A stretch of DNA of 64,000 bases, from the NCBI GenBank assembly GCA_963765205.1, contig CAVXVB010000009.1, forward strand, positions 1,280,001-1,344,000, read 5' to 3'. Shown here one piece after another: positions 6,207-43,503 of the stretch; the stretch's first letter is position 1; each line of letters begins with the position of its first letter. A program made the position numbers and the translations under genes. The notes under the pieces were generated by a model, which saw only the letters and a list, made by a program, of their open reading frames with translations, was not told the origin of the DNA and searched no databases. The stretch comes from an uncultured Verrucomicrobiae bacterium (lineage in GTDB: Bacteria > Verrucomicrobiota > Verrucomicrobiia > Opitutales > JABDGR01).

Positions 6207-6701
6207 TTAGCCTCTGATAATCTGTTCTGTCACCACAGCCAGCGGCTCCCCCGGCGCACAATCCGCGCGAATCGCCACAAATCCGCCGCGGTGCTGATCA
6301 AACCACGGCCAGACGAGCACTTTATCCGTCGGCGGGATAGGCAGCGCGTCAATTTCCTCACGCGGGAAAAAGGCAAATTCGCCCTCGTCGCCCGTAGGCG
6401 GCAACGCCGGAAGCGTTTTTTTGCAATCGAACAAAAACATCAGCCAGTGCCCGCCGCCTTCGTAATTTTTTTCGGAGATGTAGCCGAACAGGTGCAAATC
6501 CTGTGCGGTGACGGCCAAGCCGACCTCCTCGGCGGTTTCGCGGATGGCGCACTCGAAGGGCGATTCGCCGCGGGCCATTTCCAGCTTGCCGCCGATGGGG
6601 CTCCAGCAGCCGAGGTTGGGCGCCTTGCGCCGCTTGATAAGCAGCAGCCGCCCACGCGCCTCGCGCAAAAACACCAGCACGCTGATTTTGAACGCGGTCA
6701 T
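6207..6701 (-). CDS. NUDIX hydrolase
   Basis: Nudix box GGKLEMARGESPFECAIRETAEEVGL. Confidence 0.92.
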   Translation of the reverse strand: MTAFKISVLVFLREARGRLLLIKRRKAPNLGCWSPIGGKLEMARGESPFECAIRETAEEVGLAVTAQDLHLFGYISEKNYEGGGHWLMFLFDCKKTLPALPPTGDEGEFAFFPREEIDALPIPPTDKVLVWPWFDQHRGGFVAIRADCAPGEPLAVVTEQIIRG

Positions 6702-7112: not shown

Positions 7113-7434
7113 ACACGTCTTCGACAGTCAGTGGACCACCCCAGCCCTGATTTCGCTTTTTTACGAAATATCTTGCAACCCCCTTGTTTTTTACTGGTTT
7201 AGTGTCGTTGTTATCAGGTATAGTCACCTTTCACCTCCTTCCACCATGAACTGGTCCATACATCTAATCGCTACGGCGGTATTCCTTACCAGGGAATCCC
7301 GTCGAGGTTCGTTGTGCCCCAGAATTCAAGCCCGGCAGAGCGATAATCCAATGCCTAAAGATTATCTGCAAACCGCAAATATTGGTGCATCCGGAAGTGA
7401 CAGGTCTTGAGCGATCGCTATCGTTAGCTTCGCC

Positions 7435-7468
7435 AACCCACTTCCCGCACGGAGGTGGGTTTTTTGTT
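7435..7468 (+). terminator. Intrinsic terminator-like hairpin
   Basis: AACCCACTTCC-CGCAC-GGAGGTGGGTT followed by a T-run. Confidence 0.6.
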
Positions 7469-7652
7469 GGTCCAATCCGCAACCCGCCTCCTTTGCCCGC
7501 TTGAATACGCTTCTTTTGCAAATCCTTTCCGTGGCTTCACCGCTGAGCCCAATTGAATCAGCCTGCGCCCGCGCCAAATCCCGCGGCCGTCCAATCCGTT
7601 TGGCTATGGCCAGGCGAGAGGGGCGACGGTGTGTGTTCTTTTGCGAAAATTG

Positions 7653-7682
7653 TCCGGGTCACGATTTTTATCGTGACCCGGA
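7653..7682. promoter_or_regulatory. Perfect 13-bp inverted repeat upstream of the tRNA array (candidate operator or hairpin)
   Basis: TCCGGGTCACGAT-TTTT-ATCGTGACCCGGA. Confidence 0.45.
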
Positions 7683-7771
7683 TCGCCAGCCGGCGGCGTT
7701 ACGCCGGTAGTAAAGCCTGCGCGGCGCGTCCCTGAACTTTTTAGATCAGGCATTAGCCCCGCTCGCTTTGC

Positions 7772-7845
7772 CGTCTCGTCGTCTAACCAGTGCAGGATTT
7801 CGGCTTTTCACGCTGAAGATGCGGGTGCAACTCCCGTCGGGACGT
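7772..7845 (+). tRNA. tRNA-Glu(TTC), non-canonical elbow
   Basis: Acceptor CGTCTCG/CGGGACG, anticodon arm TCGGC-TTTTCAC-GCTGA, T arm GCGGG-TGCAACT-CCCGT. Confidence 0.82.
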
Positions 7846-7855
7846 TCATTTTTAA

Positions 7856-7926
7856 GCGTGCGTGGCGAAGCAGCAACGCAGCGGTCTGCCAGTCCGCAGT
7901 CCCGGGTGCGACTCCCGGCGCGCGCA
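7856..7926 (+). tRNA. tRNA-Gly(GCC), non-canonical elbow
   Basis: Acceptor GCGTGCG/CGCGCGC, anticodon loop CTGCCAG, T arm CCGGG-TGCGACT-CCCGG. Confidence 0.8.
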
Positions 7927-7932
7927 AGTTTT

Positions 7933-8005
7933 GCAGCCTTGGTGTCAATAGCAGCACAGCGGACTTTTAATCCGCAAGGTGTGGGTGCAAGTCCCACAGG
8001 CTGCA
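7933..8005 (+). tRNA. tRNA-Lys(TTT), non-canonical elbow
   Basis: Acceptor GCAGCCT/AGGCTGC, GCGGA-CTTTTAA-TCCGC, GTGGG-TGCAAGT-CCCAC. Confidence 0.9.
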
Positions 8006-8014
8006 CGACTTTTA

Positions 8015-8087
8015 CGCGACGTGCCCGAGCAGCAAAGGGGCTGGTCTGCAAAACCAGTGAGCGCGGGTGCAAGTCCCGTCGTCGCGT
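8015..8087 (+). tRNA. tRNA-Cys(GCA), non-canonical elbow
   Basis: Acceptor CGCGACG/CGTCGCG, CTGGT-CTGCAAA-ACCAG, U73 discriminator as expected for Cys. Confidence 0.88.
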
Positions 8088-8096
8088 CTATTTTTA

Positions 8097-8169
8097 GGGG
8101 GCATGGTGTTCAACAGCAACATTCGATGTTCGCATGGTCGAGATGCGGGTGCAACTCCCGCTGCCTCCA
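8097..8169 (+). tRNA. tRNA-Ala(CGC), non-canonical elbow
   Basis: Acceptor GGGGGCA/TGCCTCC with the G3:U70 Ala determinant, loop TTCGCAT, one mismatch in the anticodon stem. Confidence 0.82.
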
Positions 8170-8177
8170 CGCTTTAC

Positions 8178-8250
8178 ACGTCCGTAGTTCCAGGGAACTG
8201 CCCGGTCTCCAAAACCAGGCGGGCAGGTGCGACCCCTGCCGGGCGTGCCA
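8178..8250 (+). tRNA. tRNA-Trp(CCA), very short D loop, encoded CCA end
   Basis: Acceptor ACGTCCG/CGGGCGT, D arm GTTC-CAGG-GAAC, loop CTCCAAA, G73-CCA. Confidence 0.82.
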
Positions 8251-8256
8251 ATTTTG

Positions 8257-8332
8257 GGAGGCTAAGCTAATCTAGTGAAAGCGCGCGGCTGAAGCCCGCG
8301 AGAGCGCGGCGCAAAACCGCGAGCCTCCACCA
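8257..8332 (+). tRNA. tRNA-Phe(GAA), encoded CCA end
   Basis: Acceptor GGAGGCT/AGCCTCC, CGCGG-CTGAAGC-CCGCG, T loop CGCAAAA, ends ACCA. Confidence 0.82.
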
Positions 8333-8337
8333 TTTTC

Positions 8338-8408
8338 CGCGGGCTGGGCGAGGTCCCCGCCTGGTCTCATAAGCCACGGCGTGGCCGGTGCAACTCCGGC
8401 GCCCGCCA
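8338..8408 (+). tRNA. tRNA-Met(CAT), initiator-like acceptor, divergent
   Basis: CGCGGGC/GCCCGCC with a 1:72 mismatch, loop CTCATAA, GCCGG-TGCAACT-CCGGC. The anticodon stem is weak. Confidence 0.68.
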
Positions 8409-8419
8409 TTTTTCTTTAT

Positions 8420-8491
8420 CAGGCCATGGCAGAGCAGCAATGCACTCCGTTCGGGACGGAGACAGCGCCGGTGCAAGTCCGGCTGGCCTGA
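8420..8491 (+). tRNA. tRNA-Pro(CGG), non-canonical elbow
   Basis: Acceptor CAGGCCA/TGGCCTG (C1:G72, A73), CTCCG-TTCGGGA-CGGAG. Confidence 0.88.
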
Positions 8492-8500
8492 CTTTATTAC

Positions 8501-8573
8501 GCAGCGGAAGACAAACAGCAGAGTCGCCACCTTGTCACGGTGGAGAGAGCGGGGGCAGCACCCGTCCGCCGCG
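8501..8573 (+). tRNA. tRNA-Asp(GTC), non-canonical elbow
   Basis: CCACC-TTGTCAC-GGTGG, G73, T loop GGCAGCA, one acceptor mismatch. Confidence 0.8.
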
Positions 8574-8584
8574 CCCTTTTCGAT

Positions 8585-8657
8585 CGAGGCGTCGCCAAGC
8601 AGCCAAGGCATCTGGCCTACACCCAGACACGCGGGGGTGAGAGTCCCTCCGCCTCGA
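8585..8657 (+). tRNA. tRNA-Val(TAC), C at position 33
   Basis: Acceptor CGAGGCG/CGCCTCG, TCTGG-CCTACAC-CCAGA, T loop TGAGAGT. Confidence 0.8.
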
Positions 8658-8666
8658 CCCTTTCCT

Positions 8667-8740
8667 TGCCGGGTAGCTCAACAGCAGAGTGTCCGGTTGT
8701 TACCCGGATGATGCAGGTGCGATTCCTGCCCCGGCAGCCA
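8667..8740 (+). tRNA. tRNA-Asn(GTT), encoded CCA end
   Basis: Acceptor TGCCGGG/CCCGGCA, TCCGG-TTGTTAC-CCGGA, G73-CCA. Confidence 0.9.
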
Positions 8741-8782: not shown

Positions 8783-9822
8783 AGGGGTCAGGCTGCACCT
8801 TATTACCTTGACAGAACCAACCTTCCCGCAAATTCTATCGATTATGCCGCGCAAACTACGCTTGGAATTCCCGGGAGCCGTTTACCACGTCATCAACCGG
8901 GGGAACTACCGCCACGACATTTTTGCCACCAGCGGGGCGCGGGCGGCTTTCATGAGTTGTGTCTGGGAGGCCTGCCAAAAATCGGGCTGGCGGCTGCACG
9001 CCTATGTGCTCATGCGCAACCATTACCACCTGGCGCTGGAAACCCCCAAAGGCAACCTGGTGGCGGGCATGCAATGGCTGCAGGCGACGTTTGCCAACCG
9101 CTTCAACCGGCTCCGCGGCGAGCGCGGGCATCTCTTTCAAGGACGCTACAAGGCTTTGCTGGTCGAACCCGGCGCGGCGCTGGGCCAGTTGTGCCACTAC
9201 ATCCACCTGAACCCCGTGCGCGCCAAAGTCGTGACCGTCGAGCGGTTGAGAAAATTCCGCGATTCCAGCTATTGGCAGCTTTGGCATCGGGCGGAACGTC
9301 CGCCTGCCCTGTGCGTGCAGACGGCGCTGCGGCAGGCGGGCGGCTTGGCCGACACCCCTGGCCGGGCATGCAGCCTACGAAAAATTTCTCGCCTGGCAGG
9401 CCGCGCACGGGCCGGTCGGGCGCAACCAGGCTTATGTGTCCCTGAGCCGGGGCTGGGTGCTGGGCAGCCCGACATTCAAGGAAAACCTGCTCAAGGAACA
9501 CTCCTTGGCCGCCGACACCCGCGCCTGGGAAACCAGCGGCAAAACCCACATCCGCCAGCGCGCATGGGACCCGCGCCCTGCGGGAGGGCTTGCACCGCTT
9601 GCGCCAGCCCGAAAAAAATCTCACCGCGGGCCACTTGGCGCAGCCGTGGAAGATTGCCTTGGCGCTGTTCTTGAAGCAAACCACCCAAGCCTCGAATCCC
9701 TGGCTCGCCCTTCATTTCGGCTCGCCCAGCCCCACCTACCTCAGCAAACTCATCTGCACCCACCGCCATGACCCCCAACTCCACCCCTTCCTCCAAAAAC
9801 TCAGGTAAAAAGGTGCAGCCTG
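8783..9822 (+). mobile_element. RAYT-type (Y1 HUH tyrosine transposase) element bounded by 20-bp inverted repeats; ORF 8844-~9808 has two frameshifts
   Basis: MPRKLRLEFPGAVYHVINRGN, HUH motif NHYHL, GHLFQGRYK, YIHLNPVRA. CAGGCTGCACCTTATTACCT (8789-8808) matches the reverse complement of 9803-9822 at 19/20. Confidence 0.85.
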
Positions 9823-43418: not shown

Positions 43419-43429
43419 GTGAAAAAGAG

Positions 43430-43503
<74 letters not shown>

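Follow-up and report, generated by a model that had tools for sequence, protein, structure and literature searches.

Few nucleotides in biology are as strongly conserved as pseudouridine 55 (Psi55, encoded as U55) in the T loop of transfer RNA (tRNA) and G18 in its D loop, which serve as textbook anchors of the tRNA fold. We describe here an array of 12 tRNA genes in which these two positions are exchanged together. It lies at positions 7772-8740, on the forward strand, of a 64,000-nucleotide stretch of DNA from an uncultured Verrucomicrobiae bacterium (assembly GCA_963765205.1, contig CAVXVB010000009.1, positions 1,280,001 to 1,344,000); this whole stretch is referred to below as the window. 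In gene arrangement, its closest described counterparts are the bacterial tRNA arrays known as L-arrays. A tRNA array unit has been defined by Tran et al. 2016 (PMC4758250) as at least 20 tRNA genes at a density of at least two per kilobase (kb), and the main text of Santamaria-Gomez et al. 2021 (PMC8421152) counts Verrucomicrobia and Planctomycetes among the phyla that have L-arrays. The same text describes the trn operon of Anabaena sp. PCC 7120 as an L-array of 23 functional tRNAs that are induced by translational stress and may participate in translation, and it discusses a co-regulated homing endonuclease together with T4 SegB, which cuts within tRNA genes. The window array resembles L-arrays in its dense, co-oriented and supernumerary genes, in its patchy spread and, among its relatives, in having a homing-endonuclease neighbour. 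In contrast, the window copy, with 12 genes in 969 nucleotides (nt), exceeds the defining density and falls short of the defining number, and the elbow swap, the RtcB and TROVE neighbours and the structured leader RNA described below lie outside the published account as far as we have seen it. The main texts of the two papers contain no mention of the T loop or the D loop, and that of PMC8421152 none of G55, U55 or the elbow.

The canonical elbow, as summarised in a review of its structure (PMC4810234), has G18 intercalated between nucleotides 57 and 58 with a single hydrogen bond to Psi55, and a G19:C56 pair whose outer face is a stacking surface for RNase P, T-boxes and the ribosome. T loops elsewhere are built differently: according to a preprint (10.1101/2022.12.26.521914), those of riboswitches read YGNRA (UGNRA 88.7%, CGNRA 10.9%), tRNAs being the exception with U at position 2, and the nucleotide that intercalates between positions 4 and 5 is almost exclusively adenosine. 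The array tRNAs appear to adopt this general solution of a YGNRA loop with an intercalated A. Eleven of the 12 window T loops match Y-G-N-R-A at positions 1-5, the exception being GGCAG in tRNA-Asp, and the C54 of tRNA-Phe, which corresponds to the minor CGNRA form, is conserved in three other genomes (G008, G030 and G154). As in the T-loop motif of flavin mononucleotide (FMN) and cobalamin riboswitches, the partner loop of the array tRNAs offers an A at the G18 site; the receptor of the riboswitch motif is another loop of the aptamer, whereas here it is the D loop with a preserved G19:C56 pair, in a three-dimensional geometry that we infer. The tRNA-like structures of tymoviruses come closer still in letters, since their Rfam consensus combines a D-loop CAGU with a T-loop UGCAACU, exactly as in the array tRNA-Glu, although they reside in the 3′ untranslated region of plant RNA viruses and have a pseudoknotted acceptor arm, whereas the array consists of ordinary bacterial tRNA genes. 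The Rfam model for these structures scores the array at 18-21 bits against a cut-off of 40. In work of 2002, de Smit and colleagues reportedly found that the 18:55 pair of tymovirus RNAs covaries between G·U and A·G, and that no other state of the pair is viable. Departures from G18 and U55 in cellular tRNAs are known from Staphylococcus, where the non-proteinogenic tRNA-Gly species used in cell-wall synthesis lack G18, G19, U55 and C56 according to the text of PMC4574755. Those belong to a single isotype from which all four bases are gone, whereas the window array keeps G19 and C56 and spans 12 isotypes (about 20 elsewhere). Both the array type and, in viral tRNA-like structures and riboswitches, the A·G geometry are already known; in the main texts that we searched, including the T-loop modification review PMC7912444 (supplements and most subscription journals were outside this scope), we saw no A18/G55 class described for the tRNA sets of cells or phages.

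The 12 genes of the window array run head to tail in one orientation, correspond to 12 amino acids and are separated by T-rich spacers of 6-11 nt. Segmentation by coordinates gives each of them a cloverleaf with a 7-base-pair (bp) acceptor stem, a 5-bp T stem and a 7-nt T loop, with 19-21 of 21 stem pairs formed. G55 is present in all 12 T loops, C56 in 11 (tRNA-Val has A56), U54 in 10 (C54 in tRNA-Phe, G54 in tRNA-Asp) and A58 in 11 (G58 in tRNA-Asp), the T-loop letters being exactly those listed in an earlier note on this DNA. That note had also claimed that AG replaces GG in the D loops, and 10 of the 12 indeed have AG and lack GG; the others are tRNA-Trp, with a 4-nt loop that reads CAGG, and tRNA-Met, with a tiny and ambiguous D arm. 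An A thus stands in place of G18 in 10-11 of the 12 tRNAs. G19 and C56 are kept in 11, and it is the inner contact of the elbow alone that is altered. The synthetase identity elements to which the note had drawn attention are present as well (G3:U70 in tRNA-Ala; U73 in tRNA-Cys; G73 in tRNA-Trp, tRNA-Asp and tRNA-Asn; C1:G72 in tRNA-Pro), and all 12 anticodon loops have 7 nt and a purine at position 37, with U33 in 11 and C33 in tRNA-Val.

The genome to which the window belongs (G000; 4.02 megabases (Mb) in 12 contigs, 92% complete, with the window at G000:C9:1280001-1344000) carries a full canonical tRNA set besides. All 48 of its non-array tRNAs called by ARAGORN have U55-C56, 47 of the 48 have a GG D loop, and together they cover all amino acids; the housekeeping tRNAs of this genome do not share the swap. 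The stand-alone tRNA-Met of the window, regarded as normal in the earlier note and placed by ARAGORN at 43429-43503, is canonical at both sites (U55-C56, GG). Every one of the 12 array anticodons, which in array order are UUC, GCC, UUU, GCA, CGC, CCA, GAA, CAU, CGG, GUC, UAC and GUU, is served by one to three housekeeping genes, so that the array adds isodecoders and no new anticodons. TruB is encoded in the genome. A scan of all 4.02 Mb for G55-type T arms returned 253 hairpins and a single cluster, which is the window array; a stricter pattern of two successive T arms had five matches in the array and none in the reversed control.

Whether A18 and G55 belong together can be judged across related arrays. 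Two adjacent G55-type T arms served as the query for a scan of two public collections, one of genome contigs and one of viral contigs, and all counts of loci given here are among the matches listed. The genome contigs comprised 129 loci, of which 58 had no ARAGORN tRNA and are chance matches, 62 had at least two G55-C56 tRNAs and 15 were G55-dominant; the corresponding figures for viral contigs were 134, 34, 61 and 19. These loci and the relatives described below provided 1133 unique tRNAs called by ARAGORN, after deduplication by sequence and exclusion of T loops that are not 7 nt long. Genome G037 (L004/L014) and locus L010, which contain ordinary U55 tRNAs or are off-target, were left out of all counts. 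Among tRNAs with G55, the D loop had AG in 571 (19 of them AGGAG), GG in 45 and neither in 20; among those with U55 it had GG in 466, AG in 12 and neither in 10; and the tRNAs with C55 all had GG (nine, with none in the AG or neither categories). Because the loci were picked by G55 and not by D loop, the D-loop state is an unbiased read-out. The same association is found within single arrays: in 38 of 38 mixed loci, defined as having at least three G55 and at least three U55 tRNAs, the G55 tRNAs mostly have AG and the U55 tRNAs mostly GG, and the commonest D loops of the two classes are set apart by that base (AACAGCA versus AACGGTA, for example). As the sequences are related to one another, the P value of a Fisher test on the pooled counts exaggerates the support, and this within-array contrast is a stronger argument than those counts. 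Two close pairs of tRNAs with the same anticodon, at least 85% identical, differ at 18 and 55 jointly, two usable pairs being too few for counts of events. The 18:55 swap is a real covariation. The earlier note had proposed covariation across related arrays as a test and had preferred a selected A18:G55 class to random decay; the 1133 tRNAs and the mixed arrays bear out the former, and the latter is supported by this covariation together with the canonical housekeeping set and the stem compensation described below.

Exceptions to the swap are not spread evenly over isotypes. At 41 G55-dominant loci (L161, L204, L216, L183 and L206 among them), tRNAs with a CAU anticodon keep U55 in 13 of 24 cases, versus 21 of 315 for other isotypes, and all three CAU tRNAs with a mismatch at 1-72 have U55. 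Isotype-specific exceptions of this kind argue for function. CAU tRNAs in otherwise G55 arrays, whether for Met, Ile2 or initiator, often retain GG along with U55. A further sub-class of G55 tRNAs has a reversed 54-58 pair: the pooled array tRNAs include 35 with A54 and 31 with U58, with T loops such as AGCGTTA and examples at L310 2020-2095 and 2897-2981.

Among 60 relatives searched by BLAST, the array was found in G008, of the same family and 84-88% identical, and in G030, of the same order and another family; a third hit, in G037, proved to be ordinary tRNAs and was dropped. None of six genomes of the same genus has the array, and one of three other genomes of the same family does. In G008, where it is split over two contigs overlapping in tRNA-Trp, the order is Glu-Gly-Lys-Cys-Ala-Trp-...-Val-Asn-Pro-Gln-Met-Tyr-Leu-Ile-Thr-His-Arg-Arg-Ile, with 19 ARAGORN calls and further T arms; G030 has 16 calls and further T arms over about 6 kb. 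The alignment of the window genome with G008 ends directly after tRNA-Asn, and the flanks of the two arrays differ. A 3.5-kb contig from a relative in a peat metagenome (run X6) lacks tRNA-Pro, as G008 does, and continues for about 1.2 kb where the window sequence is unlike it. The end of the alignment and the continuation of the peat contig together indicate that the window copy corresponds to the first 12 genes of an array that numbers about 30, and we regard it as a truncated, slightly eroded form of a long tRNA array whose distribution is patchy.

The comparison with G008 also bears on whether the tRNA folds have been under selection. It covers 231 stem pairs in 11 orthologous tRNAs; tRNA-Pro was excluded for lack of a close orthologue, the tRNA-Pro(CGG) of G008 being identical to that of the window at 45 of 72 positions. 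Of these pairs, 192 are unchanged and paired, 13 have changed on both sides and are still paired, and 10 have changed on one side and are still paired; four are broken in the window genome, four are broken in G008, seven are unpaired in both and one falls in a gap. Such counts bear the signature of selection on RNA structure. Conservation varies from gene to gene. In tRNA-Asn, the last gene before the truncation, 70 of 71 bases are identical; tRNA-Phe is nearly identical and has one compensatory change, at pair 7-66; and in the Met(CAU)-like gene six compensatory pair changes preserve the fold, the mini D hairpin included, with C27·C43 broken in the window copy. A 3′-terminal CCA is encoded by only three of the 12 window genes (Trp, Phe and Asn).

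The distribution of the arrays is broad and patchy. The strict pattern of two successive T arms occurs in 10 of 401 genomes and 9 of 185 genera of a sample of the phylum, and in none of the reversed controls. Named genome records with arrays, among the matches listed, are mostly from Verrucomicrobiota and include Planctomycetota, Myxococcota, Gemmatimonadota, Cyanobacteria and others. The patchy spread and the differing flanks point to probable horizontal transfer. In the viral collection, contigs of 131-275 kb have arrays in which 25 of 26 to 30 of 31 tRNAs are G55, HNH genes are found between the tRNA genes, and a gene for a head maturation protease lies near one array. With 20-30 tRNA genes and HNH genes between them, these contigs resemble the phage tRNA clusters with interspersed homing endonucleases, and differ from the five clusters of cultured phages that we checked (Gordonia Octobien14, Pseudomonas PaP1, Mycobacterium Typha and Stubby, and Mesorhizobium Cp1R7A-A1), in which none of 66 ARAGORN tRNAs has G55. 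A BLAST search of 50,697 phage records with a viral G55 array and the window array found generic tRNA similarity only. Given the absence of G55 from the cultured-phage clusters, the elbow swap is not a general trait of phages and belongs to particular lineages that are so far uncultured.

Upstream of the window array, at 7508-7647 on the forward strand, lies a conserved structured leader RNA of about 140 nt (covariance-model match, 138.9 bits), the last part of which is an invariant G/U-rich strand and a run of U. It is kept in G008, G030, G154 and an Opitutus metagenome-assembled genome (MAG), with copies at L013:503-642(-), L011:5758-5897(+), L021:5571-5709(-), L310:1501-1633(+) and L283-L307. 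Three of 151 genomes sampled have the leader, each as a single copy and always before a G55 array. Its core was found at 25 metagenome loci, 17 of which have a G55 tRNA, usually tRNA-Glu, within 450 nt downstream; the viral scan did not contain it, and neither did a further 21 array loci that were searched. In an alignment that was itself fitted to the model, 97.2% of cells are paired, versus 30-47% in slid controls; the variable hairpin has 12 changes on both sides, and two further helices show C-G to U-G changes. The leader has no match in Rfam. Our guess is that it is a terminator-type attenuator that keeps the array silent.

In the genes near other arrays there are hints of a context of RNA damage. 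We surveyed 18 arrays with flanks of mostly 3 kb. RtcB is encoded beside the array of G008 (L012:7017-8651) and that of a Prosthecobacter MAG (L078:118-1710). A TROVE (Ro60-like) gene lies inside the array of G030 (L011:9951-11387), another beside that of a Verrucomicrobiales MAG (L041:420-1856) and a third on a viral contig (L187:5-1429). HNH or His-Me nucleases are encoded beside the G030 array and five of nine viral arrays tested; the window flanks contain no homing endonuclease, and HNH is a frequent and not a strict neighbour of G55 arrays. The RtcB and TROVE neighbours suggest a link between these spare tRNA sets and RNA repair or quality control.

On balance we lean towards the reading that the array genes encode working spare tRNAs whose elbow is insulated, and that selection keeps such tRNAs in the sets carried by mobile arrays and phages. 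A horizontally spread array of about 30 genes would supply surplus tRNAs where a complete canonical set already exists. At the inner elbow contact of these tRNAs A18·G55 takes the place of G18·Psi55, within a YGNRA loop into which an adenosine would intercalate between loop positions 4 and 5; the outer G19:C56 pair, the U54-A58 pair, the cloverleaf and the identity elements for the synthetases are preserved. As A·G is a common T-loop mode of RNAs other than tRNAs, the L-shape and the face presented to RNase P, the ribosome and T-boxes should persist. What would be lost are the handles U55 and G18, with no Psi55 made by TruB and no Gm18, the modification made by TrmH (according to the review PMC7912444). 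Factors that need to see or cut T-Psi-C would then not act on array tRNAs, which would remain usable during any attack on, or surveillance of, the T loop of canonical tRNAs. One review describes a toxin whose cut in the T loop of tRNA falls between T and Psi (PMC9086364), and the RtcB and Ro60 neighbours point to a setting of RNA damage. We infer normal folding, processing, charging and use in translation, and likewise the selective reason. Evasion of T-loop-directed attack is the likeliest benefit and, taken on its own, rather unlikely in our estimate. A more elaborate version is put forward as speculation that will quite probably need revision: A18·G55 would define an orthogonal, mobile pool of adaptors, borne as whole tRNA sets by phages and L-arrays, with which translation continues when canonical tRNAs are cut or disabled at the elbow by the toxins of competitors, host defence or the phage itself, and which in bacteria would form part of an RtcB/Ro60 damage module, silenced by the leader RNA until needed.

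Several observations weigh against the insulated-elbow reading. ARAGORN overlooks five of the 12 genes, and five fall short of the Rfam cut-off. The frequency of G55 is ascertained, the loci having been selected for two G55 T arms, although the D-loop state is not. TruB is, to our knowledge, nearly universal, and independence from it would have no obvious value. A general T-loop nuclease as the driver would have a weak point in the U55 that CAU tRNAs frequently keep within G55 arrays, and beside none of the arrays examined did we find a nuclease or other factor able to tell U55 from G55. The link with RtcB, TROVE and HNH genes is a lead and not a statistic, based as it is on a choice of 18 arrays that was not blind, and with no control set of U55 arrays. 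The window copy itself has lesions at otherwise invariant positions (U54G, A58G and A3·C70 in tRNA-Asp, C56A in tRNA-Val, G31·G39 in tRNA-Ala and C27·C43 in tRNA-Met), is truncated, encodes CCA in three of 12 genes as compared with 16 of 16 in G030, and has an insertion between leader and array. Neither RtcB nor TROVE was found in the window genome, which is 92% complete. Our judgement is that the class is probably maintained by selection and that the window copy is partly eroded; truncated, without RtcB, TROVE or HNH neighbours and with lesions in about four genes, this copy may be only partly functional.

These same defects would be expected if the window copy were a dying remnant, cut off from its promoter or leader and giving no useful tRNAs whatever the class does elsewhere, an explanation that we consider doubtful and nevertheless take seriously. 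It accounts for the presence of 12 genes where G008 and G030 have about 30, for the alignment that stops after tRNA-Asn where the peat contig runs on, for the 90-nt insertion after the leader, for the damage to tRNA-Asp, tRNA-Val, tRNA-Ala and tRNA-Met, for the lack of RtcB, TROVE and HNH genes and for the IS200-like transposase that adjoins the array. It is less easily squared with an intact leader, with the eight of 12 genes that have no lesion at conserved positions, or with the 23 of 33 stem pairs that differ from G008 and are still paired, though selection may have acted mainly on the G008 branch. A different kind of explanation concerns the class as a whole. If A·G and G·U were interchangeable, isosteric variants, the array could have inherited an ancestral state that spread by descent and gene conversion with no adaptive value, the housekeeping tRNAs never having crossed an unfit intermediate. 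We think this unlikely. Only two 18:55 states are common, A·G is a standard T-loop solution elsewhere, the proportion of G55 in arrays ranges from 10% to nearly 100%, and gene order and the shared leader imply that much of the verrucomicrobial signal comes from one lineage, all of which such neutrality would predict. Near-fixation in several viral and bacterial arrays that look unrelated and differ in gene order (30 of 31, 25 of 26) would not follow from it, and neither would the absence of G55 from all 48 housekeeping tRNAs and all 66 cultured-phage cluster tRNAs or the non-random exception of CAU. Moreover, isotype-specific bodies have been kept, which means that the swap was gained gene by gene or was selected after conversion.

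Selection could also have acted on the genes and not on their products. No stretch of a tRNA gene is more conserved than the sequence that encodes the T arm, and homing endonucleases or integrases that recognise it as DNA would spare genes with T55G, G18A being a compensation at the level of RNA. G55 arrays do have HNH or His-Me homing endonuclease genes inside or next to them (L172 has four; L161, L204, L216, L187 and G030 have others), and a homing endonuclease and SegB are treated in the main text of PMC8421152. This driver is nonetheless improbable: no target site is known for the HNH enzymes borne by arrays, whose occurrence has no U55-array comparison, a cutter of canonical T arms would hit the 40-50 tRNA genes of the host too, and the window and several bacterial arrays have no HNH gene in the flanks examined. 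It is more improbable still that the genes encode tRNA-shaped RNAs with no part in translation, whether they supply amino acids to transferases or act as ligands or decoys in RNA surveillance of the Ro60/RtcB type. The staphylococcal tRNA-Gly (PMC4574755), the TROVE and RtcB genes in or beside some arrays and such odd members as a tRNA-Trp with a 4-nt D loop, a tRNA-Met with a mini D arm and a tRNA-Val with C33 could be cited for it, but almost the whole set of 20 amino acids is represented in the arrays by tRNAs that have proper anticodon loops and identity elements, the G19:C56 pair is retained where staphylococcal tRNA-Gly lacks it, and the related Anabaena L-array encodes 23 functional tRNAs that may participate in translation (PMC8421152).

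Whole tRNA sets with a matched replacement imply that the G18/U55 pair is not required for a tRNA as such, and A18/G55 sets, which selection seems to maintain, are found mainly in mobile arrays and in the genomes of phages. Such sets amount to a natural experiment on the purpose of Psi55, TruB and Gm18, on the limits of elbow rewiring and on T-loop-directed attack as a possible widespread pressure. The leader, which has no entry in Rfam, may regulate a silent tRNA operon. Spare tRNA sets of this kind are probably under-annotated, as standard finders miss at least a third of such genes (five of 12 here). ARAGORN called seven of the window genes (Glu, Gly, Lys, Cys, Trp, Pro and Asn). The Rfam tRNA model (RF00005, cut-off 29 bits) placed seven above its cut-off (Asn 61.7, Lys 57.9, Cys 56.6, Pro 52.4, Gly 51.9, Val 45.9 and Glu 44.1), gave tRNA-Ala 18.5 bits, and had no match at E≤10 for Trp, Phe, Met and Asp. 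The union of the two tools is eight genes; tRNA-Phe, tRNA-Met and tRNA-Asp are known from manual segmentation alone, with 19-20 of 21 stem pairs.

The individual genes, all on the forward strand, are as follows. The array begins with tRNA-Glu(UUC) at 7772-7845 (D loop AACCAGTGCA, T loop TGCAACT, 21 of 21 stem pairs) and tRNA-Gly(GCC) at 7856-7926 (D loop AGCAGCA, T loop TGCGACT, a U31·U39 mismatch, A73, 19 of 21 pairs). Next come tRNA-Lys(UUU) at 7933-8005 (D loop CAATAGCA, T loop TGCAAGT, 21 of 21 pairs) and tRNA-Cys(GCA) at 8015-8087 (D loop AGCAGCAA, T loop TGCAAGT, U73, 20 of 21 pairs). In tRNA-Ala(CGC), at 8097-8169, the G3:U70 pair accompanies D loop TCAACAGCA and T loop TGCAACT, with 20 of 21 pairs; its G31·G39 mismatch is paired in G008. 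The gene for tRNA-Trp(CCA) spans 8178-8247, or to 8250 with the encoded CCA, and has T loop TGCGACC and G73 in addition to its CAGG D loop; the odd D arm, with a 4-nt loop and three bases between the D and anticodon stems, is likewise found in G008. It is followed by tRNA-Phe(GAA) at 8257-8329, or to 8332 with CCA (A8, D loop ATCTAGTGA, T loop CGCAAAA, A73, 20 of 21 pairs), and by the Met(CAU)-like gene at 8338-8408, with a C1·C72 mismatch, the very small and ambiguous D arm and T loop TGCAACT. At 8420-8491, tRNA-Pro(CGG) has C1:G72, A73, D loop AGCAGCA and T loop TGCAAGT; in G008 and the peat-metagenome relative it is missing at the equivalent place, seen as a gap in the alignment with G008 and as a joint from 8340 to 8510 in run X6. 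The gene for tRNA-Asp(GUC), at 8501-8573, has G73, an A3·C70 mismatch and T loop GGCAGCA, with G54 and G58 where G008 has TGCAACA, and is probably impaired. That for tRNA-Val(UAC), at 8585-8657, has D loop AGCAGCCA and T loop TGAGAGT, with A56 where G008 has C56. Its C33, in place of the near-universal U33, is found in the window genome and in G008, whereas the housekeeping tRNA-Val(UAC) has U33. The last gene, tRNA-Asn(GUU), spans 8667-8737, or to 8740 with CCA, and has G73, D loop AACAGCA and T loop TGCGATT. U-rich trailers resembling (CCA)AUUUU follow nearly every array tRNA, here and in the arrays of G030, G243 and G436. Loss of encoded CCA, which G030 keeps throughout, extends to most genes of the G008 array.

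Between the leader and the first tRNA gene, at approximately 7655-7745 on the forward strand, lies a genome-specific insertion of about 90 nt with two hairpins, absent from G008 in the pairwise alignment. It might uncouple the array from the leader. A REP-like repeated element was considered for this insertion and rejected, as the genome has no second copy. Just before the leader, a terminator-like hairpin with a T run (7435-7461, forward strand, found by consensus scan, with an 11-pair stem) closes the upstream unit; three such sites in the region compare with a shuffle mean of 2.2, which is weak evidence when taken alone. The search for a sigma-70 promoter of the array returned one weak match, at 7397-7424, which lies upstream of the terminator-like hairpin and is not convincing, and a sigma-54 promoter at the 3′ end of the leader was dismissed by eye, as its spacing does not fit. 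An additional G55-type hit at window position 6488, on the other strand and inside a NUDIX gene, is a chance match. Outside the array, about 3.3 kb past the end of the window, ARAGORN calls a stand-alone tRNA-Gly(UCC) at G000:C9:1347348 that has a normal T loop, a D loop, TGCGACA, without GG, and a low Rfam score of 40.7 bits. Downstream of the truncated array, an IS200-like Y1 transposase gene occupies 8844-9674 on the forward strand (Pfam PF01797, E 8.7e-12). Among contigs from two soil runs (X1 and X2), some diverge from the window at 8811 and another bridges this point, and the junction may be polymorphic.

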